A DNA stretch of 64,000 bases from an uncultured Alphaproteobacteria bacterium (GTDB lineage Bacteria; Pseudomonadota; Alphaproteobacteria; Methylaequorales; Methylaequoraceae). The notes beneath the pieces are model-generated. The model was not told the DNA's origin. It worked only from the letters and a program-made list of their open reading frames with translations, and made no database searches. The stretch is from positions 16,581 through 80,580 of the forward strand of contig CACBBU010000005.1 in assembly GCA_902537615.1 (NCBI GenBank), read 5' to 3'. Of the stretch, positions 1 to 32,284 are shown one piece after another (the first letter of the stretch is position 1; each line of letters begins with the position of its first letter). The position numbers and the translations under genes are program-made.

Positions 1-839
1 ATTGGAGCTGATCTTGGTAAATGCATTACGTTTAAAAAAATAGCTAAGCCCAAAAGCCCAAAAATTATTGAAGGAACTGCCGCAAGATTATTGATATTAA
101 TCTCAATAAAGTCTGTAAATTTATTTTTGGGAGCTAGTTCTTCTAAGAACACACCCGAGGCGACAGCAACAGGAAAACATAATAATAATGTAACAAGTAA
201 TGTAAAAAAAGAACCTAACATTGACCCTAGAATACCTGCTTGCTCAGGTTCTGTTGAGTCCGCATTTGATAAGAAATTCGTATTTAACCCAAATTTTATA
301 TCTCCATTTTTCTTCAAGGCATTAAACCAGCTCATTTGAATGTTATTTATCAATCTATCTTCTTCTAAAAAATTTTCCATCTGAGGGTTTTTATGGATAA
401 CATCAATTGTAGATGATGCTAATAACCAAATTTTTTTTGATTCTCCAATTATTTCAATATTTTCCATAGCAAGCTTCATAAGATTTTGCTCTGCTGCTGA
501 TGAAATAAAAACAGAAAGGTCCCTGAAAGTTTTTCTATCTTTTACTTCGGGAAAATAGTTTTTTAAAGCGTCATTTATTAATAATTTATAATTTGCAAAC
601 TTAAATTCTTCGGGGTTATTGGTTTTGTTGGGATCAATGATTTCTTGGTCAAAATTAATCTCTAATTGTATAAAAGTACTTTTGAATGCACCTTTTCCTT
701 CTACGAAAATTGAAGACAGAATCGTTATTAAAAATATAACAGCAGTACCAATTCCCAGAATTCCAAAAAATCTAAATCTTTTTTCACTTCTATGCCTTTT
801 TTCAAGCGATTTGCTTATTAATTCAGTGTTTTTACTCAT
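1..839 (-). CDS. pstA: Phosphate ABC transporter permease PstA (runs off the left edge)
   Basis: Not in the ORF track. ATG at 839 overlaps the pstC stop (ATGAGTAA). Reverse translation near the edge gives ...LIEININNLAAVPSIIFGLLGLAIF..., a PstA motif. Confidence 0.9.
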   Translation of the reverse strand, partial: MSKNTELISKSLEKRHRSEKRFRFFGILGIGTAVIFLITILSSIFVEGKGAFKSTFIQLEINFDQEIIDPNKTNNPEEFKFANYKLLINDALKNYFPEVKDRKTFRDLSVFISSAAEQNLMKLAMENIEIIGESKKIWLLASSTIDVIHKNPQMENFLEEDRLINNIQMSWFNALKKNGDIKFGLNTNFLSNADSTEPEQAGILGSMLGSFFTLLVTLLLCFPVAVASGVFLEELAPKNKFTDFIEININNLAAVPSIIFGLLGLAIFLNVMHLPRSAP

Positions 840-2217
840 ATCTTTCTCTGTATTTTTGGACAATTTTAAGTGCATACAAATTCAATAATAAAGTTACAAA
901 AAATAAAGTTATTCCGAGAGCAAATGCAGCGAGGGTTTTTGCACTATCAAATTCTTGGTCGCCTACTAATAGCGTTACAATTTGAACAGTTACAGTGGTT
1001 ACTGCCTCTAAAGGATTCGCAGTAAGATTTGCTGCAATACCTGCAGCCATTACAACAATCATTGTTTCCCCAATTGCACGTGAAATCGCTAATAAAATTG
1101 CTCCTACTATTCCTGGGAGTGCAGCAGGTAAAATAACTTTTTTAATAGTTTCTGATTTAGTAGCACCCATAGCATATGATCCATCTCTAAGTGACGTCGG
1201 AACAGATGTTATTACATCGTCTGATAATGAAGAAATAAACGGGATGATCATTATTCCCATAACCCCTCCTGCTGCCAATGCACTTTCTGAAGCCATTGAC
1301 AACCCTAATGATGAAACAAAATCCTTCAAAAATGGACCAACTGTTATTGCAGCAAAAAAACCGTAAACGACTGTTGGAACTCCAGCTAATATTTCAAGAA
1401 TTGGCTTGAAGGTTTTTCTTACAGTTGGTCTGGCGTATTCTGCCAGATAAATTGCTGATAGAAGGCCAACAGGGATAGCAACTGCCATTGCAACTAAGGT
1501 AATTAAAAGTGTTCCTGTGAAAATTGGTATCGCTCCGAATGAACCCTGGCTTGCTATCTGATCTTCTCTAATAGCAGTTTGAGGGCTCCAAGCTAAACCA
1601 AATAAAAAATCAAAAAAAGGGACTCTTTCAAAAAACCTAACGGCCTCAAAAATTAATGAAAAAACAATTCCTATAGTTGTAATAATTGCAATTACTGAAC
1701 AAAAAATTAAAAGGTTTATATTTGCTTTTTCAACTGCTTGACGTGCCCTGAAAAAAGTAGAGACTTTTCTCAGTGAAACCAAACTTGAAATTAAACCTAC
1801 AACCAGTACTAAAAGAAAAACATATGAATCAGAATTAGTTGTTAATGTCTGATAATAAGCCGCGGAATCAATAATTAAAGGATTAGTCCCTGGAAAAATT
1901 TTTTCTGGGTTTGTTGCTTTTATTGTATCCATGAGCATCGATGGGTTGCCTTTGAAGTTATCAACAAGGCTTAGTGGAATAGATTCTTTAAGGAAGATGT
2001 CAATTATGTAAGGTTTAAAAAAAAACCAACAAATAAGTATTATTGAACTGGGTAACAACAACCACAAAAGAGAATATGTTCCATAATAAGAAGGAAGGGA
2101 AGGAAGTTTTGATCCTTTTGTAATATCTTCGTTAATTTTAAGAGCTTTTGTAGTTCCATACCAATGGATGTAAAAGCTAAGAAAACAAAAGATGATTAAA
2201 AAGGACCAAAACCCCAT
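832..2217 (-). CDS. pstC: Phosphate ABC transporter permease PstC (long alphaproteobacterial form)
   Basis: LEILAGVPTVVYGFFA and SRAIGETMIV motifs; follows pstS. Confidence 0.95.
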   Translation of the reverse strand: MGFWSFLIIFCFLSFYIHWYGTTKALKINEDITKGSKLPSLPSYYGTYSLLWLLLPSSIILICWFFFKPYIIDIFLKESIPLSLVDNFKGNPSMLMDTIKATNPEKIFPGTNPLIIDSAAYYQTLTTNSDSYVFLLVLVVGLISSLVSLRKVSTFFRARQAVEKANINLLIFCSVIAIITTIGIVFSLIFEAVRFFERVPFFDFLFGLAWSPQTAIREDQIASQGSFGAIPIFTGTLLITLVAMAVAIPVGLLSAIYLAEYARPTVRKTFKPILEILAGVPTVVYGFFAAITVGPFLKDFVSSLGLSMASESALAAGGVMGIMIIPFISSLSDDVITSVPTSLRDGSYAMGATKSETIKKVILPAALPGIVGAILLAISRAIGETMIVVMAAGIAANLTANPLEAVTTVTVQIVTLLVGDQEFDSAKTLAAFALGITLFFVTLLLNLYALKIVQKYRERYE

Positions 2218-2226
2218 ATTTAAAGC

Positions 2227-3279
2227 TTACTTCTTCTGAAGAACTTTTGCATCAAATTTTGCCAAAGATTTACCATCTTTTTCAAATTTTGCTCTTTCAC
2301 CTTCAGGGAGTGGTATTAGGCCTTTGGGGACTAAATAACCATCATTTCCTATTGCCTTACTTGCTGTAAATTCTCTTACATATTCTTTAACACCTGGAAT
2401 TACAGATGCATGAGCATTTTTTACATAAAAGAATAAAGATCTCGAAACAGGATACTTTCCAGAGGAGATTGCTTCAAATTCAGGAAAAACGCCATCAACC
2501 TTGGCGGCTTTCACTTTATCTCTATTTTGATCTAAAAAAGAATAACCAAAAACTCCTAATGCATTTGGATCAGCAACTAATTTTTCAATGATTAAATTAT
2601 CATTTTCACCAGCCTCAACGAATGGACCATCTTCCCTAACGCTTCTACACTGCTTTTTATAAAGTTTTTTGTTAGATTTTTTTAAAGCTTTTCTTCCGGG
2701 AAACTTTTTACAGCCTCTTTCGATAGCAAGCTCGTTAAAAGCATCTCGCGTTCCAGAAGTTGGAGGCGGTCCAATAACTACAATAGGCTTGGCAGGAAGA
2801 GCTGGGTTAACTTCATTCCACATTTTGTATGGGTTAGGTTTAACTGTGTTTCCTTCAGGGTCAGCTGGAACATCTTTTGCTAAAGCTAAGTAAACATCTT
2901 TTAAAGTTAGCTCTAACATTGGTGCAGATTTAGCATTTGCCATTGCAATACCATCGAAACCAACTTTAATTTCAGTAATGTCGGTAACACCATTTTTAGT
3001 ACATTTTTTTACTTCTTTCATCTTAATTCTTCTAGAAGCATTAGTTATATCTGGATGTTCTGTACCTAATCCAGCACAAAAAAGCTTTAATCCGCCCCCT
3101 GAGCCAGTTGACTCAATAACTGGCGTTTTAAAACCACTTGTTTTTCCAAATCTTTCAGCAACAACTGTTGCAAAAGGATATACCGTTGAAGACCCAACGA
3201 TTTTAATTTGATCACGTGAACTGACCTGGCTAGATAAACCAATAGTCAGAGCAGCTGCGACTAACATAGTTTTTTTCAT
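2227..3279 (-). CDS. pstS: Phosphate ABC transporter substrate-binding protein PstS
   Basis: Signal peptide; IVGSSTVYPF, STGSGGG, PPTSGTRDAF and YPVSRSLFFY motifs. Confidence 0.95.
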   Translation of the reverse strand: MKKTMLVAAALTIGLSSQVSSRDQIKIVGSSTVYPFATVVAERFGKTSGFKTPVIESTGSGGGLKLFCAGLGTEHPDITNASRRIKMKEVKKCTKNGVTDITEIKVGFDGIAMANAKSAPMLELTLKDVYLALAKDVPADPEGNTVKPNPYKMWNEVNPALPAKPIVVIGPPPTSGTRDAFNELAIERGCKKFPGRKALKKSNKKLYKKQCRSVREDGPFVEAGENDNLIIEKLVADPNALGVFGYSFLDQNRDKVKAAKVDGVFPEFEAISSGKYPVSRSLFFYVKNAHASVIPGVKEYVREFTASKAIGNDGYLVPKGLIPLPEGERAKFEKDGKSLAKFDAKVLQKK

Positions 3280-3340
3280 TATTTTCCTCTCTTTGTTGAA
3301 AAGTTAAGATTTAAAAATAAAGAATAATGAGGAAACAAAT

Positions 3341-3369
3341 ATTACAGAATTGTTACAGTTTTATGACAT
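3341..3369 (-). promoter_or_regulatory. Pho box (three half-sites, 11-bp period) upstream of pstS
   Basis: Minus strand ATGTCAT-AAAA-CTGTAAC-AATT-CTGTAAT versus the PhoB consensus CTGTCAT-N4-CTGTCAY. Confidence 0.9.
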
Positions 3370-3376
3370 AATTTTT

Positions 3377-4822
3377 TTAATTATTTTTGTATATGTTAGA
3401 TATGTTTTCAATTCCCCTATTAAGAGATTGACTGAAAACTAAATGAGGATCTTTATTAATTTTCAAGGATACTTTATTTTTTTTTGTCATACTAATTTTA
3501 CAAAGCTTAAGAACTTTGTAGTTTAGTCTTCCGGTCAAATGATGGACTATTCTAAGCAACTGCCCAAGAACTTTACAACTTTCCAATTCACGCGGTGAAA
3601 CTTTGTTTGTGTAAGTTGTTACAAAATTATCTTTTATAGAGTTTGAATATCTGAAATAAAGAATTAAAGATAAAAGATACCTATCTTTTCTTTCTAAATG
3701 ATTGAATGGATAATATAGAATCTCTTCTAATGCAAAAACACGTCTGTGCTCTGGATGAATGTTGGCCCCTATATTCATCAACCAACAAGCTGCTTTGACA
3801 ATTCTGTCGCACAATTTTATGTTACCATCAAATGATTTTACCCAGTCGAAAATTTTTTTTACATCCCTGGTCTTTGCTAAATTTGAGATTTTCTTAACCT
3901 GCGAAAAAAAGGGATCACTTTCCTTTTCACTTATGTTTTTGTAAAGTATTCCTTCTCTTATTCCTGTATTTGTAAAATAGATATTTTTTATTTTAAATTT
4001 TTTTACAATTTTTTCTAAAATAACAAGGCTGTAAGGAATTATCTGACACCTAGACTTAGAAATTTTTTTTAGGAAATTTTCGTTAATTGTACCCTCTTTA
4101 AATATTACTTTTCTGATTGAGTGAATAAAATTTTCAGCATTAACTGAGTAGTCTTGAATTATTTTAATCTCATCATTTTCGATATGCATGTGAACTTTTG
4201 CTAATGCCCTAAAGGACCCACCTATTGCATAGAAATTTTTAAAGTTTTTAGATTCAATTTTTTTTAAATTTCTATCTATAAAATTTGAAACAATGACTCC
4301 ATCTGGCTGACCTAAACCTTGAAGTACTACATGACCTAAATTTGATGACCCAAGAAATTCCGATTGGTCTCTTTTTTTTACTTTAACTAACTCTAGGCTT
4401 CCTCCACCAAAGTCTCCAACTAATCCATTAACTATATTTCTTGAAAAAAATAAACCTTTTGCAGCGAGAAGGCCTTCTTCCTTTTCACTTAAAACTTTTA
4501 ATCGAATTCCAAATTTTTTTAAAATTAAGTTTACCAATATTTGCTTATTTTTTGCTGTTCTTACAGCTGCAGATCCAAAAACAATGATATTTTTTTTCTT
4601 TATGTTTTTTGAAATCTCAAAAAATCTTTTTAAAACAATTATTAACTCCTCGATCATTCCTTTTGAAAAAGATCGATTAGAACATATAATTTTTCCTAAA
4701 TTCATAACTACCTTTTCGTTGAAAATTGTATTTGCTGAATAACTAACTGAGTCAAAGATAACTAATCTAACTGAAGATGATCCAATGTCTATAACAGCGA
4801 AAGGAGATTTATTTTTTTTCAT
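3377..4822 (-). CDS. ppx: Exopolyphosphatase, Ppx/GppA family
   Basis: AVIDIGSSSVRL, DFGGGSLE and GIREG motifs; overlaps ppk1. Confidence 0.9.
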   Translation of the reverse strand: MKKNKSPFAVIDIGSSSVRLVIFDSVSYSANTIFNEKVVMNLGKIICSNRSFSKGMIEELIIVLKRFFEISKNIKKKNIIVFGSAAVRTAKNKQILVNLILKKFGIRLKVLSEKEEGLLAAKGLFFSRNIVNGLVGDFGGGSLELVKVKKRDQSEFLGSSNLGHVVLQGLGQPDGVIVSNFIDRNLKKIESKNFKNFYAIGGSFRALAKVHMHIENDEIKIIQDYSVNAENFIHSIRKVIFKEGTINENFLKKISKSRCQIIPYSLVILEKIVKKFKIKNIYFTNTGIREGILYKNISEKESDPFFSQVKKISNLAKTRDVKKIFDWVKSFDGNIKLCDRIVKAACWLMNIGANIHPEHRRVFALEEILYYPFNHLERKDRYLLSLILYFRYSNSIKDNFVTTYTNKVSPRELESCKVLGQLLRIVHHLTGRLNYKVLKLCKISMTKKNKVSLKINKDPHLVFSQSLNRGIENISNIYKNN

Positions 4823-6911
4823 TTGCTTGTAAGTGTGAACCTCTACCAGATAACGATGGATTATTTATAAAAAAATTATGTGCAGAAAAAACATTTCTTT
4901 TTTTAATTTTTTTATATACACCATTATGATCTAAAACCCAACTGTTTGTATTGTCTTTTAAATAACTAATCATTATCTGTTCTAAAACTTGCTTATGGAC
5001 AGTATCATTGATAATTGGAATAAAAGTTTCGACTCGCCTATCGAGATTTCTTGTCATCATATCAGCAGATGAAATAAAAATTTTATTTTGTCTATCTGGC
5101 ATTTTTTTTCCATTTGCAAAGCAATATATTCGACTGTGTTCTAAAAATCTACCTACCAAGCTTTTAACAAAAATATTTTCAGATAAATTTTTAACACCAG
5201 GACGTAAACCACATATTCCTCTAACTATAAGAAAAATTTTTACTCCTGCTTGAGAGGCTTCATAAAGTTTATCGATGATTTCATCATCAATTAATGAATT
5301 AACTTTAATCCAAATTTCTGCTGGCAATTTTTTCTTTGAGTTAATTATTTCGTTATCAATGAGCTCTATCATAAAGTTTCTAAGTAAAGTTGGCGAATAT
5401 GAAACCAACTGCATTTTTTGAGGTTTTGTATAACCTGTAATAAAATTAAAAATTTTTAAGGCATCATTCACCAATTCTTCGTTACAAGAAAAATACGATA
5501 GGTCTGTATAAATTTTAGCTGTAATCGGATGATAATTTCCAGTTCCAAAATGAACATAAGAGGTTATATCATCATCTTCTTGTCTTGAAATCAAAGAAAT
5601 TTTTGCATGTGTTTTCCATTTGAGAAAACCATAAACAATGTTTACCCCTGATTTTTCAAGATCCTTTGCCCACTGTATATTTTTTTCCTCATCAAACCTT
5701 GCTTTTAATTCAACTACTGCTGTTACAGACTTCCCATTATTTGATGCTGTCTTTAATGCCTCGATAATTGGTGATTCAGAACTAGTTCTGTAAAGAGTTT
5801 GTTTAATTGAAATAACCTTAGGATCTTTTGATGCCTGTTGTAAAAAGTTAACTACAACATCAAAACTTTCGAATGGATGATGTATAAGTATATCCTTTTT
5901 TTTAATGGCAGAAAAACATTTTCCTTTAAAATCTAGTATTCTTTGCGGGTATCTTGATTTAAAAGGTTTGAAGCAAAGGGATAATTTTTTTTCATCAATT
6001 AGTTCATTAAGAGAACTAACATCTAAAATTGATTTTAAGCGAAAAATACTTTCATCTTTAACCTTTAAAGATTTTCTTAGAAAGTTTAGTAATTTCTTTT
6101 CTACTCTACCTTGAACGTATAAACCAACAACCTCACCACGACGTCTTTTTTTTAATGCTGTTTCGAATGATAGAAGAAGATCCTCAGCTTCCTCTTCGAA
6201 ATCTATATCACTATCTCTGATTATTCTGATAAATGTATAATGAGCTAGTTTATAATCAGGAAAAATAGATTTTAAATTTTGTAAGATTATATTTTCAGAG
6301 CTTACGAAAATATCTTCTTTTTTACTTATTTTAAAAAACCTTTTTAACTTGGGAGGCAGAATAACTAAGGAATAAGAGGTTTTTCCAGCTTTATTTTTTA
6401 ATGAGCAAACTAAGCTCAAACTCAGATTTGGTAAGAAAGGAAAAGGATGCGCAGGATCAATTGCTAGGGGTGTTAGTGTTGAAAAGATTTTTTTCTCAAA
6501 GATTGTATAAATTATTTCACGTTTTTTTTTTAAATTTTTTGGGGAATCAATGATTCTTATTTTTTCTTTCTCTAACTTTTCCCTCAAATCAGTTAAGATT
6601 AATTGTTGTTTTTTTAGAAGTATTTTCATAGATTTAGCAACCTCTTGGTATTGCTGTCTTGTAGTTCGTCCATCAGAGGTTCGGATAAAAATTTTTTTTT
6701 TGAGTTGCCTAAATAAACCAGCAACTCTTACCATATGAAACTCATCTAAATTATTTCCCGAAATCGATAAAAATCTTAATCTCTCAAGAATAGGGTTTTT
6801 ATTATTTTGCGCTTCTTTTAGAACTCTTTCATTAAAATTTAACCAGGATAATTCTCTGTTAATAAATCTTTGGGGACTTTTTTTAATATTATTTTTATTT
6901 TTCCTTACCAT
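4809..6911 (-). CDS. ppk1: Polyphosphate kinase 1
   Basis: RFINRELSWL, KQTLYRTS, ELKARFDEE, KTHAK, HFGTGNY and GRFLEHSR motifs. Confidence 0.97.
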   Translation of the reverse strand: MVRKNKNNIKKSPQRFINRELSWLNFNERVLKEAQNNKNPILERLRFLSISGNNLDEFHMVRVAGLFRQLKKKIFIRTSDGRTTRQQYQEVAKSMKILLKKQQLILTDLREKLEKEKIRIIDSPKNLKKKREIIYTIFEKKIFSTLTPLAIDPAHPFPFLPNLSLSLVCSLKNKAGKTSYSLVILPPKLKRFFKISKKEDIFVSSENIILQNLKSIFPDYKLAHYTFIRIIRDSDIDFEEEAEDLLLSFETALKKRRRGEVVGLYVQGRVEKKLLNFLRKSLKVKDESIFRLKSILDVSSLNELIDEKKLSLCFKPFKSRYPQRILDFKGKCFSAIKKKDILIHHPFESFDVVVNFLQQASKDPKVISIKQTLYRTSSESPIIEALKTASNNGKSVTAVVELKARFDEEKNIQWAKDLEKSGVNIVYGFLKWKTHAKISLISRQEDDDITSYVHFGTGNYHPITAKIYTDLSYFSCNEELVNDALKIFNFITGYTKPQKMQLVSYSPTLLRNFMIELIDNEIINSKKKLPAEIWIKVNSLIDDEIIDKLYEASQAGVKIFLIVRGICGLRPGVKNLSENIFVKSLVGRFLEHSRIYCFANGKKMPDRQNKIFISSADMMTRNLDRRVETFIPIINDTVHKQVLEQIMISYLKDNTNSWVLDHNGVYKKIKKRNVFSAHNFFINNPSLSGRGSHLQANEKK

Positions 6912-6914
6912 TCT

Positions 6915-8174
6915 TTAAAAAGCCTCTTTGTTAATACTCAATTTATTTGTAAAAAAGACATTAATCATTATCATTATTGTTGAAGTTGCTAAGCAAACAA
7001 TTATGCCTCCAAATTGATATGAAATTCCAGAAAATAGTGTTCCAAAGAATCTTCCAAATGCGTTTGCCATATAATAAAAACCTACATCTAAGGCAACCCT
7101 TTCTTTTTTCGTGAATTTTAAAATTAAATATGAATGTAAAGACGAATTTACGGCAAAGATAAATCCAAAAGTAATCAACAGAATAATAGTAATTATTAAT
7201 TGTATTTGTTCGGATTTGCTGACTAAGTAAATTAAAAAAGTGAATATTAACAATGTTATAAATAAAAACTTACACCATTTTTTTGATTCATTTACTAATG
7301 ATTGTTCAGATTTTATTTTTAAATTTATTATAGATGGTCCCATAGCTTGAACAATACCGTAGAAGATAACCCAAATAGCCATTAGGCTACCAACTATAAA
7401 AAATGGTGTTGAATTAGTTTGCTGTTCAGAAACTGAAAAAAAACTATAAAAATAAACAGGAACACCAACTACAAACCAAACATCCCTAGAGCCAAAAAGG
7501 AAAACTCTTGCTAAAGATAAATAATTTATATTTCTTGATTTTGATCTAATATCAGAAAGCCTTACCTTTTTGTTACCGCTTGGTAGTTCAGAGGAGATAG
7601 AAATCATAACTATTGTTAATATTCCAACTAATAAAAGAATCATCAGAGTTAAAGAAGGTTCAAAACCAATAGTTGAAAGTAATAAGCCTCCAACAAGAAA
7701 ACCTAACCCCTTTAAGGCATTCTTTGAGCCAGTAAGAAATGAAACTAATTTAAATAAGTTTCCCTTTTTTTTTGATGAAATAAACTTTACAACTGATTTT
7801 GACGACATTTTTGTGAGATCTTTTGCAATTCCACTAAAGCCCTGTACGATCATAACATAGATAATTGACAGCTCTAAAGCCCAACTTTTATCAAGCATTA
7901 AAAGTAGCGTTAAAGAGACTATTTGAATTGACAAACCAGAAAACAACGTACTCTTTAGACCAAATCGTGAAGCTAACCAACCTCCGAAGTAATTCGTAAT
8001 AATCCCTGCTAACTCATAAACAAGAAATAGGTAAGCTAGTTCAATGGGTGTAAACCCCATAGAGTGAAAATGTAATAAAACTATCATTCTCAGAGCACCA
8101 TCGGTGAGCATGAAAGACCAATATGAAAGTGTTATTAAAAAGAAAGTTTTCTGTTTTTGATAAATATTTTTCAC
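6915..8174 (-). CDS. arsJ: Organoarsenical efflux MFS transporter ArsJ
   Basis: YWSFMLTDGALRMIVLLHFH, AKDLTKMSSKS, LTGSKNALKG, RDVWFVVG and DVGFYYMANA are ArsJ-family signatures. Confidence 0.9.
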   Translation of the reverse strand: MKNIYQKQKTFFLITLSYWSFMLTDGALRMIVLLHFHSMGFTPIELAYLFLVYELAGIITNYFGGWLASRFGLKSTLFSGLSIQIVSLTLLLMLDKSWALELSIIYVMIVQGFSGIAKDLTKMSSKSVVKFISSKKKGNLFKLVSFLTGSKNALKGLGFLVGGLLLSTIGFEPSLTLMILLLVGILTIVMISISSELPSGNKKVRLSDIRSKSRNINYLSLARVFLFGSRDVWFVVGVPVYFYSFFSVSEQQTNSTPFFIVGSLMAIWVIFYGIVQAMGPSIINLKIKSEQSLVNESKKWCKFLFITLLIFTFLIYLVSKSEQIQLIITIILLITFGFIFAVNSSLHSYLILKFTKKERVALDVGFYYMANAFGRFFGTLFSGISYQFGGIIVCLATSTIMIMINVFFTNKLSINKEAF

Positions 8175-9169
8175 AAAAATGACCCTACCATCTGGGATAC
8201 ATCTATTAGTCGCTCAGCATAACCAATTTCATTATCATACCACGCATAAATTTTTACCTGTGTTTCGTTAATAACCATTGTACAATCAGCATCAATTATT
8301 GCTGACCTTTTATCACTTAGGTAATCAGTAGAAACGAGTGGTTTTTCCTCATAACCTAATATTCCTCTAAGTTCTTGTTCAGAAGCTTTTTTAAGAAGAT
8401 TATTTATTTCTTTCTTGTTTGTTTTCCGAGAAACTTCAAATACACAATCAGTTAAGGATGAATTTAAAAGAGGTACTCGTACGGCTTGACCATTTAATTT
8501 TCCTAGTAATTCAGGATAAATTAGAGTAATTGCTTTAGCGCTTCCTGTGGTTGTTGGAATTAGAGAATTCAGTGCAGATCTTGCTCTTCGAAATTCTTTA
8601 TTTGCCTTATCAACTATTGTTTGGGTATTCGTTGGGTTGTGAATTGTTGTAATTGACCCGTGTTTTATACCTATATTCTCATGAATTACTTTAACAATCG
8701 GTGCAAGACAGTTAGTAGTACAGCTTGCAGCAGTAACTATATCGTATTTTTTGGAATCGTAGATATCTTGATTAACCCCGTAAACAATGTTAGCTATATT
8801 TTCATCTTCAATGGGAGCAGAAACGACAACTTTTTTAACACCCATGTTAAAGTAATTCAAAAGTTTAGATCTTGATTTATAATAACCAGTACAATCAATA
8901 ATAATATCAACATCTTCCAACTCAATATTTTCAATAGTAGAGCTTGTTTGAAAGATTATTTTTTTATCATTTATAGTGATAGATTTCTCATCATTACTAA
9001 AATCAGCATCCCATTTTCCATGAACTGAGTCATATTCAAGAAGATGACGATGTAAATCAATCGTTCCCGAAGAATCATTTATCCAGGAAACTTTAGCCTC
9101 TCTCTCAATAAGTGCTTTAAGTGCAAACTTTCCAATCCTTCCAATTCCGTTGATTCCGTATGTAACCAT
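8171..9169 (-). CDS. gap: ArsJ-associated glyceraldehyde-3-phosphate dehydrogenase
   Basis: GINGIGRIG, TAASCTTNCLAP, TNTQTIVD...RRARSA and WYDNE motifs; 4-bp overlap with arsJ. Confidence 0.9.
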   Translation of the reverse strand: MVTYGINGIGRIGKFALKALIEREAKVSWINDSSGTIDLHRHLLEYDSVHGKWDADFSNDEKSITINDKKIIFQTSSTIENIELEDVDIIIDCTGYYKSRSKLLNYFNMGVKKVVVSAPIEDENIANIVYGVNQDIYDSKKYDIVTAASCTTNCLAPIVKVIHENIGIKHGSITTIHNPTNTQTIVDKANKEFRRARSALNSLIPTTTGSAKAITLIYPELLGKLNGQAVRVPLLNSSLTDCVFEVSRKTNKKEINNLLKKASEQELRGILGYEEKPLVSTDYLSDKRSAIIDADCTMVINETQVKIYAWYDNEIGYAERLIDVSQMVGSFL

Positions 9170-9299: not shown

Positions 9300-9956
9300 C
9301 TATTGTTGACTAGGTTCCTCTTTTTTAGTTGCACTAGTAGGAGATGTGATATCAGTTTTTATATTTATATTTTGAGCGGAAACTTTATCAAGAGAACCAT
9401 TTGGCTTTGTAGCTTTTAATTTGTTTGATTTCGATGGTTTCTTGGGTTTCATCAAACTGATTTTTTTATTCAACTTTTTATTGTTATTTTTTAGTTTGCT
9501 TATCGTCTTTTTTGGTTTTTTTAGTTTGCTCACTAATTTTTTATTAGTATTTTTGAGCTTACTAATTGTCTTTTTTGGTTTTTTTAGTTTGCTCGCTAAT
9601 TTTTTATTTATATTTTTGAGCTTACTAATTGTTTTTTTTGGTTTTTTTAATTTACCCTCTAATTTTTTTTTTGACTTTTTTAATATATCAAGTTTTTTAA
9701 GAGGTTTGTTTAACTTTATAACTTTAGCTTTTAAGTTTGCATTCTTTTTTTTTAAACTTTTAATAGCTTTTTTTGCATCAGATTTCTTTTTGACGCTTTC
9801 AATTGCTAAGCAACTTAGACCTACAAATTTTGGCAATTTCTTAGATCTTTTTAACTTTTTTGGATCTAGACCAGTTAATTTAGCAAATCTTTTATTTGAT
9901 ATTTTGTTTTTTTTTTCCCAGCGTTGAAGCTGTTTAGGTTTTGTTAATAATTTCAT
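9300..9956 (-). CDS. Lysine-rich (74/218) protein with a degenerate XRE-HTH-like N-terminus and 21-aa heptad repeats
   Basis: SD-like AGAGAGGA upstream; its own sigma70 promoter; N-terminus resembles the 67-aa HTH at 10550. Confidence 0.7.
   Translation of the reverse strand: MKLLTKPKQLQRWEKKNKISNKRFAKLTGLDPKKLKRSKKLPKFVGLSCLAIESVKKKSDAKKAIKSLKKKNANLKAKVIKLNKPLKKLDILKKSKKKLEGKLKKPKKTISKLKNINKKLASKLKKPKKTISKLKNTNKKLVSKLKKPKKTISKLKNNNKKLNKKISLMKPKKPSKSNKLKATKPNGSLDKVSAQNINIKTDITSPTSATKKEEPSQQ
9465..9653 (-). repeat. Three 63-bp coding tandem repeats (KLKKPKKTISKLKNxNKKLxx), plus a degenerate unit extending to ~9716
   Basis: Read directly in the translation, aa 102-164. Confidence 0.9.
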
Positions 9957-10771: not shown

Positions 10772-11314
10772 ATGAGTAAGAGTTTTGTAATGAAAATTGG
10801 GGAGTCTTTAGTTGCAGGAGGGCCTCCAGGAACCGCAGCGGAGCCAGAAGTAGTTATTGGTGAATTAGACGGTCCCTTTGGGACTGCTTTTGCTACTCTT
10901 ATTGGAAACCAGATCAAAGGCCATACTAAGGTCCTGGCAATAATGAATACTGATGTTATGGTAAAGCCCGCAACCCTTATGGTTAGCAAAGTTACAGTTA
11001 AGGATGATAAATACACCAATATTTTAATGGGAACAGTACAGGGCGCGATTGCTAATGGTGTTTTAGATTCAGTTAAAGAAGGATATATACCCAAAGATAG
11101 GGCAAATGATTTGGGAATAATAGTTTCTGTCTGGTTAAATCCCTTAGTAGCTAAGGATGAGAGTCTAGATCATAAAATACTTTTTGATATTCATAGGAAG
11201 GCAACAACTAATGCTATTAAAAAAGCTATGACCAATGAACCTTCTATAGATTGGTTGTTAGAAAACCAGGACTCGATTATTCATAAATACTATCAAAAAG
11301 AACTAGATAAATAA
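10772..11314 (+). CDS. fae: Formaldehyde-activating enzyme family protein (divergent Fae2/Fae3-type paralogue)
   Basis: GESLV...IG.LDGPFGTAFA, KPATLMVSKVT, GTVQGAIANGVLDSV.EG.IP and EPSIDWLL motifs; AAAGGAG SD. Confidence 0.85.
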   Translation: MSKSFVMKIGESLVAGGPPGTAAEPEVVIGELDGPFGTAFATLIGNQIKGHTKVLAIMNTDVMVKPATLMVSKVTVKDDKYTNILMGTVQGAIANGVLDSVKEGYIPKDRANDLGIIVSVWLNPLVAKDESLDHKILFDIHRKATTNAIKKAMTNEPSIDWLLENQDSIIHKYYQKELDK

Positions 11315-11429: not shown

Positions 11430-12827
11430 TTAGATTAGATGCTTTGTGATTATGACTGTGAAGGTTATTAAAACCAAAAGCAAAGAAAGAAAAACGGCAG
11501 CACTTCCAAGATCCTTGGCACGCTTAGATAAATCATGTTGAGAAAAAGAGATCCTATCAATAGCTGCTTCAACACTAGAGTTAAGAAGTTCAACTATTAA
11601 TAAAATTAACAAGCTACCAATCATTAATATTTTTTCAATTGGAGATGTAGGAAAAAAAAATATGGAGGGAAAAAGAAGTACACTCAATAGAAGCTCTTGC
11701 CTGAAAGCGCTTTCCTCTTTAAAAGCAAAAACAAAACCGGACAGACTATTTATCAATGCAAAAAAAAGTCTTTTAAATCCAGTGTTCTTTTTGTGAGGAT
11801 TATCATTAAAAATATAAGTTTTCGGATTTCTTTTAGATGCGATTTGTAAATTTGATTCAAATATACTAGCCACTCGTTCCCACTTAAATTTCTTTGCATG
11901 GTTAATTGGCACTGAGGGTTTAATTTGAATTGCCTTCTCGCAAGCTTTTTGTAAACTTTTATCCAAAACTCCAGCACCACTGTTACCAATTACATTTAGA
12001 GGACCTGAAACGGGAAAAGCTGCTACAGGAAGCCCACATGCCATAGCTTCAAGAATAACAAGGCCAAAGGTATCAGTTTTACTAGGAAAAACAAAAAGAT
12101 CGGCTTTTCCATAAAGATTAGGAAGTTCTTTGGGCGACTTTTGTCCAAAAAACCTAACATTAGGGTATTTTTTTTCCAATTTACGTTTATCCGGACCATC
12201 ACCAACTACCCATTTGTCACAATTAATATTGAGACTAAGGAATTCTTCAAGATTTTTTTCAACAGCAACGCGTCCAACATTTATCAAAATTGGCCTGGAA
12301 TTTTTAATTTTTTTTTTTGGTGGCTTAAACAAGCTTGTATCAACTCCTCGAGGCCATTCTGTTGTGTTTTTAATACCCCAATCACTTAATTCCTCCATAA
12401 TAGATTTAGTTGGTGTTAAAATTTTGTAAGCTTTATTGTGAAACCATCTCAAGTAGCTGTAACTTAAAGAAAGTGGTAATCTTGACCTTTCATAAATATA
12501 TTCCGCAAATCGTGTATGAAAAGATGTCGTATAAGTAAAACCATTTTTTACAACAAAATTCCTAGCAGCAAGGCCAAGGGGACCCTCCGTTACAATATGA
12601 ATAGCATCCGGTAAAAAGTCTTTGATCATTTTTTTTACTTTATTGTAAGGAAATAAAGCAAGACGAATCTCCGGATATGTGGGACAGGGAAAAGTATTGA
12701 AAAGGTTTGGAGTAATCATTTGAACATGGTGGCCTCTTTTTTCTAGTATTCTTTTAGTATGACTTAAGGTGTGAACAACGCCGTTGACTTGGGGCATCCA
12801 CGCATCTGAAATTATGGATATTTTCAT
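11430..12827 (-). CDS. Fusion of a GT4 glycosyltransferase (Agt-like glycolipid synthase) and diacylglycerol kinase DgkA
   Basis: N-terminal DAWMPQVNGV, VGRVAVEKN and FPSKTDTFGLVILEAMACG; C-terminal ~119 aa EESAFRQE, ELLNSSVEAAIDRI and RAKDLGSAAV. Confidence 0.9.
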   Translation of the reverse strand: MKISIISDAWMPQVNGVVHTLSHTKRILEKRGHHVQMITPNLFNTFPCPTYPEIRLALFPYNKVKKMIKDFLPDAIHIVTEGPLGLAARNFVVKNGFTYTTSFHTRFAEYIYERSRLPLSLSYSYLRWFHNKAYKILTPTKSIMEELSDWGIKNTTEWPRGVDTSLFKPPKKKIKNSRPILINVGRVAVEKNLEEFLSLNINCDKWVVGDGPDKRKLEKKYPNVRFFGQKSPKELPNLYGKADLFVFPSKTDTFGLVILEAMACGLPVAAFPVSGPLNVIGNSGAGVLDKSLQKACEKAIQIKPSVPINHAKKFKWERVASIFESNLQIASKRNPKTYIFNDNPHKKNTGFKRLFFALINSLSGFVFAFKEESAFRQELLLSVLLFPSIFFFPTSPIEKILMIGSLLILLIVELLNSSVEAAIDRISFSQHDLSKRAKDLGSAAVFLSLLLVLITFTVIITKHLI

Positions 12828-12834
12828 TGCTCTT

Positions 12835-13638
12835 TTAAATTTTCGAGTGTGTTAAAATTAATTTGTTGTGTTGTTGCTTAACTTTCTCAGACCAATCAAT
12901 TATCTCTAGTGTCCCATCATAATTCTCAACCAAAGCAGTTAGGGATTCAACCCAATCACCATCATTAGCATAGATTATCCCATCAATTATTTTTAACTCT
13001 GCTTTGTGTATATGACCACACACAACCCCATCATAGCCTCTTCTTTTTGCCTCTTTAGCCATTATCTGTTCGTAAGCTGTAACAAATGATACAGCTTTTT
13101 TTACTTTATGTTTTAAATACTGAGATAGAGACCAATAGGGTAACTTAAAGAATCTTCTGAACTTGTTAAATAGCGTATTAATTTTTATTAAGGCTACATA
13201 GCCCTTATCACCTAAATAAGCAAGCCATTTGGCATGTTTTATTATGCCATCAAATTGGTCACCATGAATAGTCCAAAGTTTTTTTCCTTTAATTGTTTTA
13301 TGAATAGCGTATTTCATAATTTTTATGTCACCAAAGTTTACACCAATATATTTGCGGGCAGCCTCATCATGATTTCCAGGTATAAAAATAACTTTGATAC
13401 CTTTTCTAGCTTTTCTAAGAAGTTTTTGAACAACGTCGTTGTGCGATTGTGGCCAATACCATTTTTTTTTAAGTCTCCAACCATCAACAATATCACCGAC
13501 CAAGTATATAGTTTCAGTTTTAATTTGTTTAAGAAAGTCTAATAACAGTTCTGACTTGCAACCAGAAGTTCCAAGGTGTAGGTCAGAAATCCAAACAGTC
13601 CTGTATCCTTTTTTTATTTTGGTGGAATATCCATCCAT
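12835..13638 (-). CDS. plcP: PlcP-type metallophosphoesterase (phospholipase C of lipid remodelling; LpxH-like fold)
   Basis: SDLHLG, GDIVDGW, GNHDE, HGD, GHIH and NDGDWVES motifs; adjacent to a GT4 gene and a Pho box. Confidence 0.85.
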   Translation of the reverse strand: MDGYSTKIKKGYRTVWISDLHLGTSGCKSELLLDFLKQIKTETIYLVGDIVDGWRLKKKWYWPQSHNDVVQKLLRKARKGIKVIFIPGNHDEAARKYIGVNFGDIKIMKYAIHKTIKGKKLWTIHGDQFDGIIKHAKWLAYLGDKGYVALIKINTLFNKFRRFFKLPYWSLSQYLKHKVKKAVSFVTAYEQIMAKEAKRRGYDGVVCGHIHKAELKIIDGIIYANDGDWVESLTALVENYDGTLEIIDWSEKVKQQHNKLILTHSKI

Positions 13639-13660
13639 GTTAAATTAATAACAATATTTT

Positions 13661-13678
13661 GTGTCAAAATTATTACAA
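13661..13678 (-). promoter_or_regulatory. Degenerate Pho box upstream of plcP
   Basis: Minus strand TTGTAAT-AATT-TTGACAC; 22 nt from the ATG, the same distance as the gap box. Confidence 0.6.
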
Positions 13679-13693
13679 AAAACTATATATAGT

Positions 13694-13717
13694 AAAAAAG
13701 GCCCCGAAGGGCCTTTT
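13694..13717 (-). terminator. Rho-independent terminator of the porin gene
   Basis: Minus strand AAAAGGCCC-TTCG-GGGCCTTTTTT. Confidence 0.9.
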
Positions 13718-13745: not shown

Positions 13746-15173
13746 CTACCATTTCAGGTGTAGTCTTGCTTGTATGGTAGATATGTCAGATGGTGTACCT
13801 CTAGCATTATCATAATCATATTCACCGTAAGCATACTCAAGCATGGCTCTAACATTGGAATTAAAGTAGTGGTTAAAACCAACAGTATGAACTTGTCCAG
13901 CTCCACCGCCACCATCACGTGAACCTACGCCTGTGCCAACATTGTCAAAGTCATTAGCGTCAATCCATTCATACTGATACTTAGGAACAAAACAATGCCT
14001 TTTACATTTTAGACCACCGACGGCTCCTTTTTTTCCGCTATGCTTATACTTACCAGTAATCGCATAAGAAAGACTAGCCGAACCACCATAAATATTGTAA
14101 TCATCACGAGTCCCAAGACCACTATTGCGTGGATCAAATGTATATTTACCGATTTGATATTCGGCTTGAAACAATAAAGCATCATTAAAAATCATGGACA
14201 ATTGAGGACCATGAAATGTATGACTTTCTGCGCTTGTTAAATTACCAATATCAATAGGCTTATCAACAAAAGTATGAACACCGTTGGCCCTAGCACTGTT
14301 TGTATCATAGGTTTCAGAACCAGACATATTTAAGTATCCAAAATGATACCCAAATAGGGTAGATAAAGGACCACCTACTAATGGCGTGTCACTTTTATAA
14401 TGATAGTGAGCAGCGATACTAGCTCCGTAATGTTCACTTTCATTATCACCATTTCCTGGTACACCACTATCACCGATGGGTTGAACCAAACCTGACTCTA
14501 GACCACTAAAAATACCCATTTTAGCGTGAAATTGTTTACCAAGAGCCCCAGAAGTATCATAAACTATACCCATTCTTTGAGCAAAATTCATCATCTCGTT
14601 ATGAAGAGGTCTTTCCATGAAGATAAGGTTGTTAGAACTCGTATTCTCATAAAGACCTTGACCACTTTTTACGTTACCGAAAGAAAGTTTACCAACTCCT
14701 TTAATGCTTTTAGAGATAAAGGCATCTTTAATAACTACATTTCTAACCTTGGAGTTGTTAGTTCCTTCAGCAAAATCAGGTTGGATAACCCAAGCCCATC
14801 CATTACCAATTTTACCTTTAATATCAAATCTCAGCCTTCTGAATTCAGCACCAAAACCGTTTCCAGTTTCATGCTGAGTCATGTTACTATTACCTGATTC
14901 ATAATCTATCAATTGGGTTAAATCATACATCATACGACCACCAATTTTAAATTCGTATTTTCCATCTGAACTTTTGATGCTCAGCCCTTTACCTTTTTTA
15001 AAATAAGCTTTGCTATCTCCAGAACCTTTAGACATTTCTTGTTTCATTTTTAGAACTTCATTTTGCAAAGCATCGATTTGTGCACCATAGTCTTGAGCAC
15101 TTGCTGTACCAATGAAAGCTCCTGTAGCCATTACAGCTAATCCAGCATAATATTTATTCATTTCTTTCCTCAT
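13746..15173 (-). CDS. OprO/OprP-like phosphate-selective porin
   Basis: Signal peptide, N-terminal coiled coil, EFRRLRF, TSSNNLIFMERP and NHYFNSNVRAM motifs, C-terminal Trp; true start may be the second Met (15161). Confidence 0.8.
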   Translation of the reverse strand: MRKEMNKYYAGLAVMATGAFIGTASAQDYGAQIDALQNEVLKMKQEMSKGSGDSKAYFKKGKGLSIKSSDGKYEFKIGGRMMYDLTQLIDYESGNSNMTQHETGNGFGAEFRRLRFDIKGKIGNGWAWVIQPDFAEGTNNSKVRNVVIKDAFISKSIKGVGKLSFGNVKSGQGLYENTSSNNLIFMERPLHNEMMNFAQRMGIVYDTSGALGKQFHAKMGIFSGLESGLVQPIGDSGVPGNGDNESEHYGASIAAHYHYKSDTPLVGGPLSTLFGYHFGYLNMSGSETYDTNSARANGVHTFVDKPIDIGNLTSAESHTFHGPQLSMIFNDALLFQAEYQIGKYTFDPRNSGLGTRDDYNIYGGSASLSYAITGKYKHSGKKGAVGGLKCKRHCFVPKYQYEWIDANDFDNVGTGVGSRDGGGGAGQVHTVGFNHYFNSNVRAMLEYAYGEYDYDNARGTPSDISTIQARLHLKW

Positions 15174-15273: not shown

Positions 15274-16542
15274 TTATTGCAACAAGTTAGGGCTATTAGT
15301 TTGAAATGTAACTAAAAATTTAGAACCTTTTCCGATTTCTGATTCAATGTGAAAATTAGCATTATGACGATTTAAAATATGCTTAACTATCGATAAGCCA
15401 AGACCTGTATTACCTGAATTTCTTGAACGAGAGGGATCGACTCTAAAAAATCTTTTTGTTAAAAGAGGAATATTTTGAGTTGTAACACCAATGCCAAAGT
15501 CCTCAACGGTTAAATTTACAACGTCTTTAATAATCTTGATACTTACCTCTATTGGTTTCTTTGATTGACTATGTGTAATGGCGTTTTCAATAATATTAAA
15601 AAAAACCTGATTAAGCTCTGATTCATCGCCGGTTATAAAAATTTCTTTTTTTGGAATTAAAAACTTACAATCAATTCGTTTAAATAATTTTCTTTCCTTA
15701 CAAATTTTTTGAACGTTTTTAAGAATATCGGTTAAATTTACTTTTTCATCAGGTGGACTAAATTCAGTTCTCTCAATTCGCGATAAAGATAGTAAGTCAT
15801 TCACAAGTCTTGACATTCGCTCAGCTTCGTTACCCATAGTTTTTAAAAAACTTTCTTTTATATTTTTTGTAGTGTTTTTTTCTGATAGAAGAGTTTCACA
15901 ATACCCAATAATCACAGAAATAGGGGTTTTTAGCTCATGACTGGCGTTAGCTATAAAATCTTTTTGCAGGTTTTGTAAATTATGTTCTGCAGTTGTATCA
16001 AAGAGTCTAATAAAACTTAATTTATTTTTACCCACATCTCTGCTCCCAGAAATCCAAATTTTATAAATTCTTTCGGATGGATAAATCAAGTCTACTTCTT
16101 TTTCAATTGGTTTTTTCTTTTTTTGTGATTCATCAATAAGATCACTAAGTTCAGGTATTCTGAGAACAGAAAAAATATTTTTGTTTTTAATATTTTCTCC
16201 AAGAAGTTGTCCACTTGCTGAATTAAACTCTATAACTTGAAGACGCTGATCTATAATTAAGAGGGGATCGGGAAAATGTTGAAAAAAATAATTAAAGAAA
16301 AAAACCCTTAATTGTTCAATCCTGTAGTTATCCTGATATTTTTTTAAAATACTATTTAAGTTAAAAATTATGGGTTCGTATAATTTAAAAAAAAATAACC
16401 GAGAGCTTTTGATTGGTTTGCCTGAAAAATTCTGTAAATTTTTAATTACACTTCTAAGATCTTTTAAGAAAAGAAAGATAAAAAGTAGACATACTAGTAA
16501 TATAAATATGAATACGATAATTATATCTTTATGAACAAACAT
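15274..16542 (-). CDS. phoR: Phosphate regulon sensor histidine kinase PhoR
   Basis: TM, PAS-like region, FIANASHELKTP, RFFRVDPSRSR..GNTGLGLSIVKH; Pho context. Confidence 0.85.
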   Translation of the reverse strand: MFVHKDIIIVFIFILLVCLLFIFLFLKDLRSVIKNLQNFSGKPIKSSRLFFFKLYEPIIFNLNSILKKYQDNYRIEQLRVFFFNYFFQHFPDPLLIIDQRLQVIEFNSASGQLLGENIKNKNIFSVLRIPELSDLIDESQKKKKPIEKEVDLIYPSERIYKIWISGSRDVGKNKLSFIRLFDTTAEHNLQNLQKDFIANASHELKTPISVIIGYCETLLSEKNTTKNIKESFLKTMGNEAERMSRLVNDLLSLSRIERTEFSPPDEKVNLTDILKNVQKICKERKLFKRIDCKFLIPKKEIFITGDESELNQVFFNIIENAITHSQSKKPIEVSIKIIKDVVNLTVEDFGIGVTTQNIPLLTKRFFRVDPSRSRNSGNTGLGLSIVKHILNRHNANFHIESEIGKGSKFLVTFQTNSPNLLQ

Positions 16543-30951: not shown

Positions 30952-31365
30952 ATGTCTTCATTATTAGATAAATGTAACAAACTTGGTCTTAAAATGACCG
31001 AGCAAAGAAAGGTGATAGTTCAGGTGTTAGCCGATTCAAAGGATCATCCCGATGTTGAATTAGTTTATAAAAGAGCATCTGAGATTGACGCTAACATCGG
31101 AATTGCCACAGTCTACAGAACAATTAGACTTTTTGAAGAAAATAATATTATTGAAAAGCATGAGTTTAAAGATGGAAGATTTAGGTACGAGGAAGTTCCT
31201 GATGAGCATCACGATCATCTTATAGATGTAAGAAATGGAAAAGTTATTGAATTTCAGAATGATGCTATTGAGGAACTTCAAAAAAGAGTAGCAAAAGAAT
31301 TAGGTTATGAATTAGTTGATCATAGATTAGAATTGTATGGTGTTCCAGCTAAAAACAAAAAATAA
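30952..31365 (+). CDS. fur: Fur/Mur family regulator
   Basis: HPDVE, ATVYRT, HHDHLID and DHRLELYG motifs. Confidence 0.92.
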   Translation: MSSLLDKCNKLGLKMTEQRKVIVQVLADSKDHPDVELVYKRASEIDANIGIATVYRTIRLFEENNIIEKHEFKDGRFRYEEVPDEHHDHLIDVRNGKVIEFQNDAIEELQKRVAKELGYELVDHRLELYGVPAKNKK

Positions 31366-32284
31366 ATCTGCTGTTAATTCTACCAATAAAAATTTTGGTA
31401 AATTTAAATCAATTTTACATAAAGTAAAGTATGTTGCAAAAAACGTTATTTATGTGAAAAGATGGTCAAGTGAGATTAAGACAGAAAAACTTAAAGAAAT
31501 AAACTACACGTCCGAGAAATTTAATCATAGAAGAAAACAGAATCAATTAGATTTTTCTTTTAAAAATTACCAGATCAAAATTATTAGGCATCCTGACCCT
31601 TTACTTCTTAAAGCAAAAAAATTAAGGCAAAAGATTTTTTTTGAAGATTGTAATGAACAAAAAATGGACTCTGATGAATTTGATGATTATTGTGATCACC
31701 TTGTCGTTATTGACAAATCAGTGGCAAGTGATTTTGTTGTAGGTACATATAGATTGCTCCTCAAAGGAAAAAATCAAAAATATAGAAGATTTTACAGTGA
31801 ATCTGAGTTTGACATTTCAAACCTATTTAAAAAAAATACTTCAATGTTAGAGGCTGGGAGATCTTGCGTTGATAAAAATTACAGAGATGGAAAAATAATA
31901 AAACTTTTATGGAGAGGTCTTGCTTTTTACATTATACAAAAAAAAGTGGATTTGATTTTTGGTTGTGCAAGCTTTCCTTCATCAAATTATTCTGAATTTG
32001 AAACTCAACTTTCTTATTTAAATCATTTCCATAAACCTCCACCAAAATATTCAACCTTTCCTAAAGAAAAGTTAAAGGCCGATACAAATATTTTATCACA
32101 AAAAAAGATCAATGAGTATGAAGAGTTTAGGTTACTTCCCCCTTTGATAAAGGCTTATATAAGAGCAGGTGCGTGGGTTGGTAAAGGTGCTGTTGTAGAC
32201 AAGAAGTTTAATACGACGGACGTATTGATAATTCTAAAATCCCAAAATATCATAAAAAAATACTCAAATTTATCATTTAAATAA
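31337..32284 (+). CDS. olsB: Ornithine N-acyltransferase OlsB-like GNAT (start uncertain)
   Basis: DEFDDYCDHL, VGTYRL, EAGRSCV, FGCASF and LPPLIKAY motifs; upstream of an acyltransferase. Confidence 0.8.
   Translation: MVFQLKTKNKSAVNSTNKNFGKFKSILHKVKYVAKNVIYVKRWSSEIKTEKLKEINYTSEKFNHRRKQNQLDFSFKNYQIKIIRHPDPLLLKAKKLRQKIFFEDCNEQKMDSDEFDDYCDHLVVIDKSVASDFVVGTYRLLLKGKNQKYRRFYSESEFDISNLFKKNTSMLEAGRSCVDKNYRDGKIIKLLWRGLAFYIIQKKVDLIFGCASFPSSNYSEFETQLSYLNHFHKPPPKYSTFPKEKLKADTNILSQKKINEYEEFRLLPPLIKAYIRAGAWVGKGAVVDKKFNTTDVLIILKSQNIIKKYSNLSFK

Follow-up and report, generated by a model that had tools for sequence, protein, structure and literature searches.

A conserved fusion of an Agt-type glycosyltransferase and a DgkA-type diacylglycerol kinase follows plcP in a phosphate cluster of marine alphaproteobacteria

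The window analyzed here is a stretch of 64,000 nucleotides (nt) from contig CACBBU010000005.1 (assembly GCA_902537615.1, positions 16,581 to 80,580 of the forward strand) of an uncultured alphaproteobacterium. Its phosphate-gene cluster contains a plcP-type gene followed, after 7 bases, by a single gene that encodes both a GT4-type glycosyltransferase (GT) resembling Agt and a diacylglycerol kinase of the DgkA type (Table 1). An earlier note, made by eye, had described this gene as one uninterrupted open reading frame (ORF) of 465 amino acids (aa) lying 7 bases after plcP, and the ORF, the coordinates, and the Pfam domains agreed with that description. Pfam placed GT4 domains at aa 14 to 291 and DAGK_prokar at aa 360 to 459 (E value, 2.5e-28), and no Pfam match to the soluble diacylglycerol kinase domain (DAGK_cat, PF00781, DgkB/YegS) was found in the fused protein. 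An AlphaFold2 model of the full protein (mean pLDDT, 85.4; pTM, 0.67) showed a GT-B domain extending to about aa 326, a segment of low confidence at about aa 331 to 350, and then a surface helix and three long helices.

Table 1. Features of the fusion locus and its surroundings (window coordinates unless a genome and contig are given)
Feature	Position	Strand	Basis or remarks
Fused agt-dgkA gene	11430..12827	(-)	Single ORF, 465 aa; Pfam, contigs across the junction
DgkA domain, aa 347-465	11430..11789	(-)	Surface helix and three predicted membrane helices
Junction, aa 331-346	11790..11837	(-)	Few joining residues plus kinase N-terminal extension (Y338, N343-P344, K346); low model confidence, likely flexible
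GT4 (GT-B fold) domain, Agt type, aa 1-330	11838..12827	(-)	Pfam, model and fold search, site conservation, tree
plcP-type metallophosphoesterase, 267 aa, predicted phospholipase C	12835..13638	(-)	Pfam Metallophos; in most related loci a homologue lies before agt
Candidate extended -10 element, TGnTA	13645..13653	(-)	7 bases past the box; 6-7 bases from hexamer end to ATG; by eye, 11/11 family loci
Degenerate Pho-like box	13661..13678	(-)	Two half-sites, 11-base period; sigma-70 -35 hexamer in second half
Hairpin after porin gene	13696..13717	(-)	z score -1.94; 9/200 shuffles fold equally well; unlisted by a separate scan
Phosphate-selective porin O/P gene with strong Pho box	13746..15173	(-)	Pfam, box search
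PhoR-like histidine kinase	15274..16542	(-)	Below NCBIfam cut-off
pstC, pstS, ppx, ppk, arsJ, ArsJ-associated gapdh	832..9169	(-)	Phosphate-cluster context
phoB	G000:C5:14029-14700		Just before the window

DNA of the window, whole or partial, was present in 20 public runs. In all four DNA runs aligned, which came from four studies, the junction (11790 to 11860) was bridged by a contig, and no insertion or deletion was found within the ORF; this check was made on assembled contigs, not raw reads, and one run (X4) is possibly the window's own source. Six substitutions inside the ORF were read by hand among those contigs, and none created a stop. A search with aa 300 to 465 matched 207 proteins among 1780 candidates, and among the 120 matches listed, 112 besides the window's own cluster were fusions of at least 420 aa, with 47 to 67% identity over aa 300 to 465. 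A lost stop codon, for which the earlier note had proposed a check at the junction, or an assembly error was ruled out by the four junction-spanning runs and the fused homologue clusters. The gene is a genuine, conserved GT4-DgkA fusion, restricted in lineage and placed within a known pathway. Six public RNA runs shared 20 to 32% of the stretch's words, but these were unaligned and so give no evidence of expression.

The kinase domain scored 98.3 bits against PF01219 (cut-off, 22.3), with model helices at aa 351 to 371, 373 to 391, 396 to 425, and 434 to 464. Its alignment to the E. coli DgkA chains of the PDB was gap-free over 117 residues (aa 347 to 463; offset, 344; E value, 1.4e-21). All ten residues named in advance from a by-eye comparison were present in it: E. 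coli R9, S17, E28, R32, and E34 correspond to R353, S361, E372, R376, and E378, and E69, N72, E76, K94, and D95 to E413, N416, E420, K438, and D439. The catalytic and ATP/metal set (R9, S17, E28, E34, E69, N72, E76, D80, K94, and D95) was retained in full (10/10), and of the 18 residues affecting catalysis that are listed in PMC4703834, the window kinase keeps 16, the exceptions being T8 (K) and G83 (S). Serine at G83 also occurs in 11 of 12 unfused betaproteobacterial kinases and, judged from these sequences, is a subfamily trait. R9, E28, E34, E69, N72, E76, D80, and K94 were invariant in 112/112 fusions listed.

Pairwise ratios of nonsynonymous to synonymous substitution (dN/dS) for the kinase domain ranged from 0.045 to 0.13 in the window's own family (19 of 45 pairs kept) and from 0.016 to 0.12 in a second family, f201 (16 of 325 pairs kept), and were below those of the GT domain in 18/19 and 15/16 pairs, respectively; these are pairwise counts from non-independent pairs, retained if GT dS lay between 0.05 and 1.0. 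These data indicated that the kinase domain is under strong purifying selection, and a dead kinase was ruled out by the invariant residues of the listed fusions together with the low dN/dS.

In the GT domain, H104, R186, K191, and the D252...E260 motif were invariant, and a fold search with the model of the protein returned as best matches GT4 enzymes such as MshA, BshA, and PimA. Twenty site residues, including the donor-binding R/K and the acidic motif, were identical in 32/32 fused sequences and in nearly all of 30 unfused ones. Membership in the GT4 family, the GT-B fold, the donor-binding R/K, and the acidic motif were all found, and no NCBIfam model scored above its cut-off. Indirect evidence, namely the position after plcP and the tree grouping with two sequences that show the published operon order (L046 and L048), points to an Agt orthologue. 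Judging from the retained site residues and the low dN/dS of the kinase, both domains look active.

The two domains had been thought to be joined by a short linker. Few residues do join them, but most of the apparent linker (Y338 to NPHK) is the kinase's own N-terminal extension, which is found in unfused relatives as well. The distance from W316 to E372 was 162 to 168 nt in fusions, 169 nt in the split genes of genus g13 of the window's family, and 199 to 593 nt in 11 betaproteobacterial operons.

The distribution of the fusion was examined in the window's own family (42 genomes, which also make up its entire order) and in f201 (96 genomes). The latter is called SAR116-like here, because its fusions group with sequences labeled SAR116 (L027) and LSUCC0684 (P0150); LSUCC0684 is a SAR116 isolate (PMC12262181). 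In the own family, 21/42 genomes had one DgkA and 21/42 had plcP, both being present in 19, and two plcP-only genomes have plcP near a contig end. The fusion occurred in 15 of the 42 genomes, across five genera; the remaining DgkA genes were split (three g13 genomes), broken by two frameshifts (G028), or alone (G010 and G011). Two separate genes in all close relatives, which the earlier note had regarded as evidence against a real fusion, were therefore not found: relatives are mostly fused, and only the three g13 genomes are split. In f201, one DgkA was found in 27/96 genomes, 26 of them fused and one (G518) carrying a stop in place of the E34 codon. All 27 adjoin plcP, and none of the 60 genomes without plcP had a DgkA. 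In every fused genome of both families the fusion is the sole DgkA found. A housekeeping DgkA was ruled out, as no PF01219 match was obtained in 21/42 and 69/96 genomes, many of them incomplete; the kinase is not a housekeeping one because it co-occurs with plcP (19/21 in the own family and 27/27 in f201).

Several loci deviate from this pattern. The lone dgkA genes of G010 (L107:5622-6068) and G011 (L108:5067-5486) have fae on one side and the porin O/P gene on the other, the place that plcP and the fusion occupy in relatives; both plcP and agt are gone, and almost all of the kinase residues are retained (A30S in G010, R9K in G011). The broken copies of G518 (L175, in-frame stop) and G028 (L111) reflect either decay or assembly error. 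Nine more f201 genomes have plcP without DgkA; among four that were examined, a GT adjoins plcP in one (G532) but not in the other three. In genus g328 of f201 (L225-L227), a more distant plcP was seen with no GT or kinase adjoining and no Pho-like site found, followed by a 322-aa gene.

A wide spread of the fusion was not found in broader samples of the class and the phylum (401 genomes each), which added only G327, a member of f201. In the class sample, 39 genomes matched the kinase end; among the 30 loci checked, only the window's own genome (G000, 79% complete) and G327 were fused, and the other nine matches were frames of 115 to 171 aa. In the phylum sample, none of the 29 loci checked out of 143 kinase-end matches was fused; two long frames whose matching part contains stops and three matches absent from the listing fell outside this check. 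A single-protein query found no relative on viral contigs. The plcP-agt-dgkA order with two separate GT and kinase genes was seen at 12 of 80 loci from a genome scan covering 2/64 parts.

In the GT tree, the fused GT domains and the split g13 genes formed one clade (100/100). This clade was sister (99/91) to one containing 7/8 betaproteobacterial operon sequences, and the lone GT of G532 was also placed as sister of the fused clade. In g13 (L015-L017), the kinase starts from an ATG of its own, in a frame shifted by one base relative to the GT. Placing g13 outside all fusions was rejected (p 1.6e-67), while own-family fusions as a clade without g13 were retained (p 0.35). A single fusion that was later re-split in g13 is preferred on these trees, by about two to one over two fusions; two independent fusions are possible because the own-family fusions may form a clade without the split g13 genes. 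The GT tree (99/97; 88/95) hints at a transfer out of the SAR116-like family into the window's own, a direction that an AU test did not establish (p 0.29). The tree built from the kinase alone is a quick one in which many forks stay open.

The predicted PlcP is 59 to 63% identical over the best stretch to those of 12 betaproteobacterial three-gene operons, with one exception at 57%. The note had proposed a Pho-like box upstream of plcP. Its position is conserved, 40 to 41 bases before the plcP start in 11/11 family loci examined, but the site is degenerate, scoring 12.2 bits against 20.4 to 22.7 bits for the four boxes from which the matrix was built, with 44 genome sites as high. In the second family, box-like sites of 13 to 24 bits precede plcP in 4/4 fused loci with a properly scored start. 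The top Pho-like site outside the cluster (17.9 bits) is at G000:C15:4495 (+). By eye, the -10 hexamer at plcP in the 11 family loci is frequently without its final T, and no clear ribosome site precedes the ATG. We infer, as a candidate only, a PhoB-type promoter with a leaderless plcP transcript; a scan for sigma-70 promoters gave counts at chance level (11 versus 9.7). The hairpin in Table 1 is likely a terminator separating plcP from the upstream porin transcript.

The surroundings link the locus to phosphate starvation, as had been proposed, both by the phosphate-cluster context and by an operon precedent, and strong Pho boxes lie upstream of pstS, gapdh, and the porin gene. Within this cluster, arsJ and the ArsJ-associated gapdh (6915 to 9169), an arsenate detoxification pair, have a strong Pho box. 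A lysine-rich, repetitive ORF of 218 aa lies at 9300 to 9956 (-), its sole Pfam match being a weak coiled coil below cut-off. A gene for Fae (formaldehyde-activating enzyme) at 10772 to 11314 (+) is convergent with the fusion and occupies the same place in G010 and G011. Farther away, at 31337 to 33102 (+), genes resembling olsB and olsA, which score under the NCBIfam cut-offs, may provide a second phosphorus-free lipid route, through ornithine lipids.

Taken together, the reading that we favor, with a probability of about 0.6, is that the gene represents the fused second and third genes of a plcP-agt-dgkA operon, its protein glycosylating diacylglycerol made by PlcP and its kinase re-phosphorylating the surplus. 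At low phosphate, PhoB would induce both plcP and the fusion, as the box and the cluster suggest, and PlcP, like its homologues, would remove phospholipid head groups to release diacylglycerol. The GT4 domain, by analogy with Agt orthologues, would then add glucose or glucuronic acid from UDP-sugars to yield monoglycosyldiacylglycerol (MGDG) or glucuronic acid diacylglycerol (GADG). Diacylglycerol left unused would be turned into phosphatidic acid by the DgkA domain, which, as in E. coli, probably forms a trimer in the membrane. CdsA could feed the phosphatidic acid back into phospholipid synthesis, such that the membrane-disrupting lipid would stay low and recovery would be possible once phosphate returns. 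The fusion itself would most likely provide one-to-one co-expression and a loose membrane tether, not new chemistry. CdsA and UDP-sugar dehydrogenase families were found in 5/5 genomes tested, and in the incomplete genome G000 neither a sulfatase-fold protein (the MdoB/EptA type of diacylglycerol producer) nor a soluble diacylglycerol kinase scored above cut-off.

Several observations weigh against this reading. G010 (99% complete) and G011 retain a near-intact dgkA without plcP or agt, and the kinase must therefore be useful somehow without PlcP. Conversely, recycling is not always needed, since many Agt loci have no dgkA nearby and no DgkA was found in G532, which carries plcP and agt. Diacylglycerol might also come from the two PAP2 phosphatases of G000, and that genome is only 79% complete. 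The identity of the Agt domain is drawn from L046 and L048, not from the characterized A. tumefaciens Agt, PB7211_960, or BCAL2365, and the recycling role is itself a hypothesis in Burkholderia (PMC13691135). Lastly, persistence of the fusion across proteins only about 52 to 57% identical could mean a benefit beyond co-expression.

A coupled switch is an unlikely alternative, in which one domain would control the other and the UDP-sugar or ATP state would set the fate of diacylglycerol, toward glycolipid or phosphatidic acid. An explicit and similarly unlikely version is a branch-point sensor, where three GT-B domains on the surface helices of the DgkA trimer would gate the kinase, UDP-sugar shutting phosphorylation and ATP with phosphate recovery reopening it. 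The geometry is suggestive: about 20 residues join the GT to the surface helix bearing R353 and S361 (E. coli R9 and S17), a helix that helps to shape the trimer active site (PMC4703834), and junction length varies by two codons only among fusions. However, two separate proteins, such as those of the operon form, can compete for a shared substrate just as well, three relatives have split genes, and the conserved junction motif is also present in unfused kinases. Only two GT columns are fusion specific, both beside the sugar-donor motif, and model confidence at the junction is low. The earlier note had suggested a reversible switch. Its view that both domains would draw on a common pool of diacylglycerol was right, but "reversible" is too strong because the kinase cannot remove the sugar from a glycolipid; only free diacylglycerol can be redirected.

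Also improbable is its second proposal, that the trimeric kinase holds the GT at the membrane and passes diacylglycerol to it. Topology permits this, as the DgkA surface helix and N terminus are cytoplasmic, on the side of the membrane at which a GT-B enzyme acts (PMC4703834 and the model), and hydropathy peaks fall mostly in the kinase part. Yet anchoring appears unneeded, since amphipathic moments and charges are alike between fused and unfused GT domains across five amphipathic and basic segments. Moreover, the stand-alone Agt of SAR11 makes glycolipids in E. coli (PMC4796936), Burkholderia agt alone makes MGDG and GADG there (PMC13691135), and a pure anchor needs no E69, N72, E76, or K94, all kept in the 112 listed fusions. 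Because split and single-domain relatives exist and the GT shows no fusion-specific surface, neither a fusion-dependent switch nor a channel is supported.

A near-neutral joining, in which a small deletion fused adjacent genes in streamlined genomes and the chemistry is that of the operon reading with no effect of fusion itself, is rather doubtful. A single base separates the fused and split states (168 versus 169 nt), and split, lone-kinase, and lone-GT forms all exist; against this, the fusion is kept in 41/48 DgkA-bearing genomes (15/21 plus 26/27) over deep divergence.

Very improbable is a kinase running in reverse, with phosphatidic acid and ADP giving diacylglycerol and ATP under the pull of the tethered GT, such that new lipid would be phosphorus-free and phosphate saved as ATP. 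It would explain the co-induction of a phosphate-spending with a phosphate-saving enzyme, and G466 has no PAP2 match. However, the neighboring PlcP already supplies diacylglycerol, PAP2 phosphatases occur in 4/5 genomes tested, and passing phosphate from a phosphomonoester to ADP is energetically very unfavorable. An assembly artefact or a decaying passenger kinase, to which the stop in G518, the frameshifts in G028, and the serine at G83 might be taken to point, is scarcely credible given the four spanned junctions, the 112 fused clusters, the low dN/dS, and the same serine in unfused betaproteobacterial kinases.

Lipid remodeling cuts the phosphorus need of marine heterotrophs, and the fusion binds the kinase, a frequent companion of plcP and agt, to their pathway more firmly than gene order does. 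No new chemistry is implied unless the domains prove coupled; were the unlikely branch-point sensor real, a single protein chain would control how much phosphorus the membranes of abundant ocean bacteria contain. One half of the protein may be overlooked in surveys, since its name in databases is either "glycosyltransferase" or "diacylglycerol kinase." A natural series of fused, split, kinase-alone, and GT-alone forms is available, together with a cultured carrier (P0150, the SAR116 isolate LSUCC0684).

In line with the earlier note, no description of a GT-DgkA fusion was found in the literature searched, most subscription papers and the PMC4796936 Table S2 of plcP neighborhoods lying outside that search. 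PMC13086504, as far as its text was covered, lists genes only. Compared with E. coli DgkA (PF01219; PDB 2KDC and 3ZE4), the window kinase has the same helix layout in the model and mostly shares the important residues, but carries an N-terminal extension and a 330-aa enzyme and differs at T8 (K), G83 (S), and Y86 (Q). DgkA of the window type appears accessory, tied to the phosphate cassette rather than family-wide. Elsewhere, DagK is phosphate-induced together with PlcP in Pseudomonas (PMC5082522), and dgkA travels with other diacylglycerol-releasing enzymes (PMC7559476).

PlcP-Agt lipid remodeling is known from SAR11 HTCC7211, with a type 2 neighborhood, and from other marine heterotrophs (PMC4796936). 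The window resembles HTCC7211 in having plcP and then an Agt-type GT4 under a Pho box, with MGDG and GADG as predicted products, and differs in its kinase, the words "kinase" and "fusion" being absent from the main text of that paper. In the phosphate island fGIp-C of HIMB59, the pst, phoBR, ppk, and ppx genes are accompanied by genes for a glycosyltransferase, an "LpxH" phosphatase, and a diacylglycerol kinase (PMC10734472). As in the window, GT, kinase, and phosphatase thus sit amid phosphate genes of a streamlined marine alphaproteobacterium; in the parts of that article consulted, the GT and kinase are not interpreted as lipid remodeling.

The closest counterpart is the plcP-agt-dagK operon BCAL2364-2366 of Burkholderia cenocepacia K56-2, whose three genes are all induced by phosphate depletion and whose DagK is proposed to recycle excess diacylglycerol (PMC13691135). 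The same three functions occur here in the same order on one strand and in a phosphate-starvation context; identity to the corresponding genes in the operons of Burkholderia sp. BCC0506 and B. latens (L046 and L048) is about 49% for the GT and about 55% for the kinase. A view of the pairing as new or as dependent on fusion is therefore unsupported, given this operon and the split, lone-kinase, and lone-GT relatives. The difference is that agt and dagK form one ORF here and two genes there, and that the hosts here are marine alphaproteobacteria; the three-gene pathway is already published from Burkholderia, and the fusion is the only new part.

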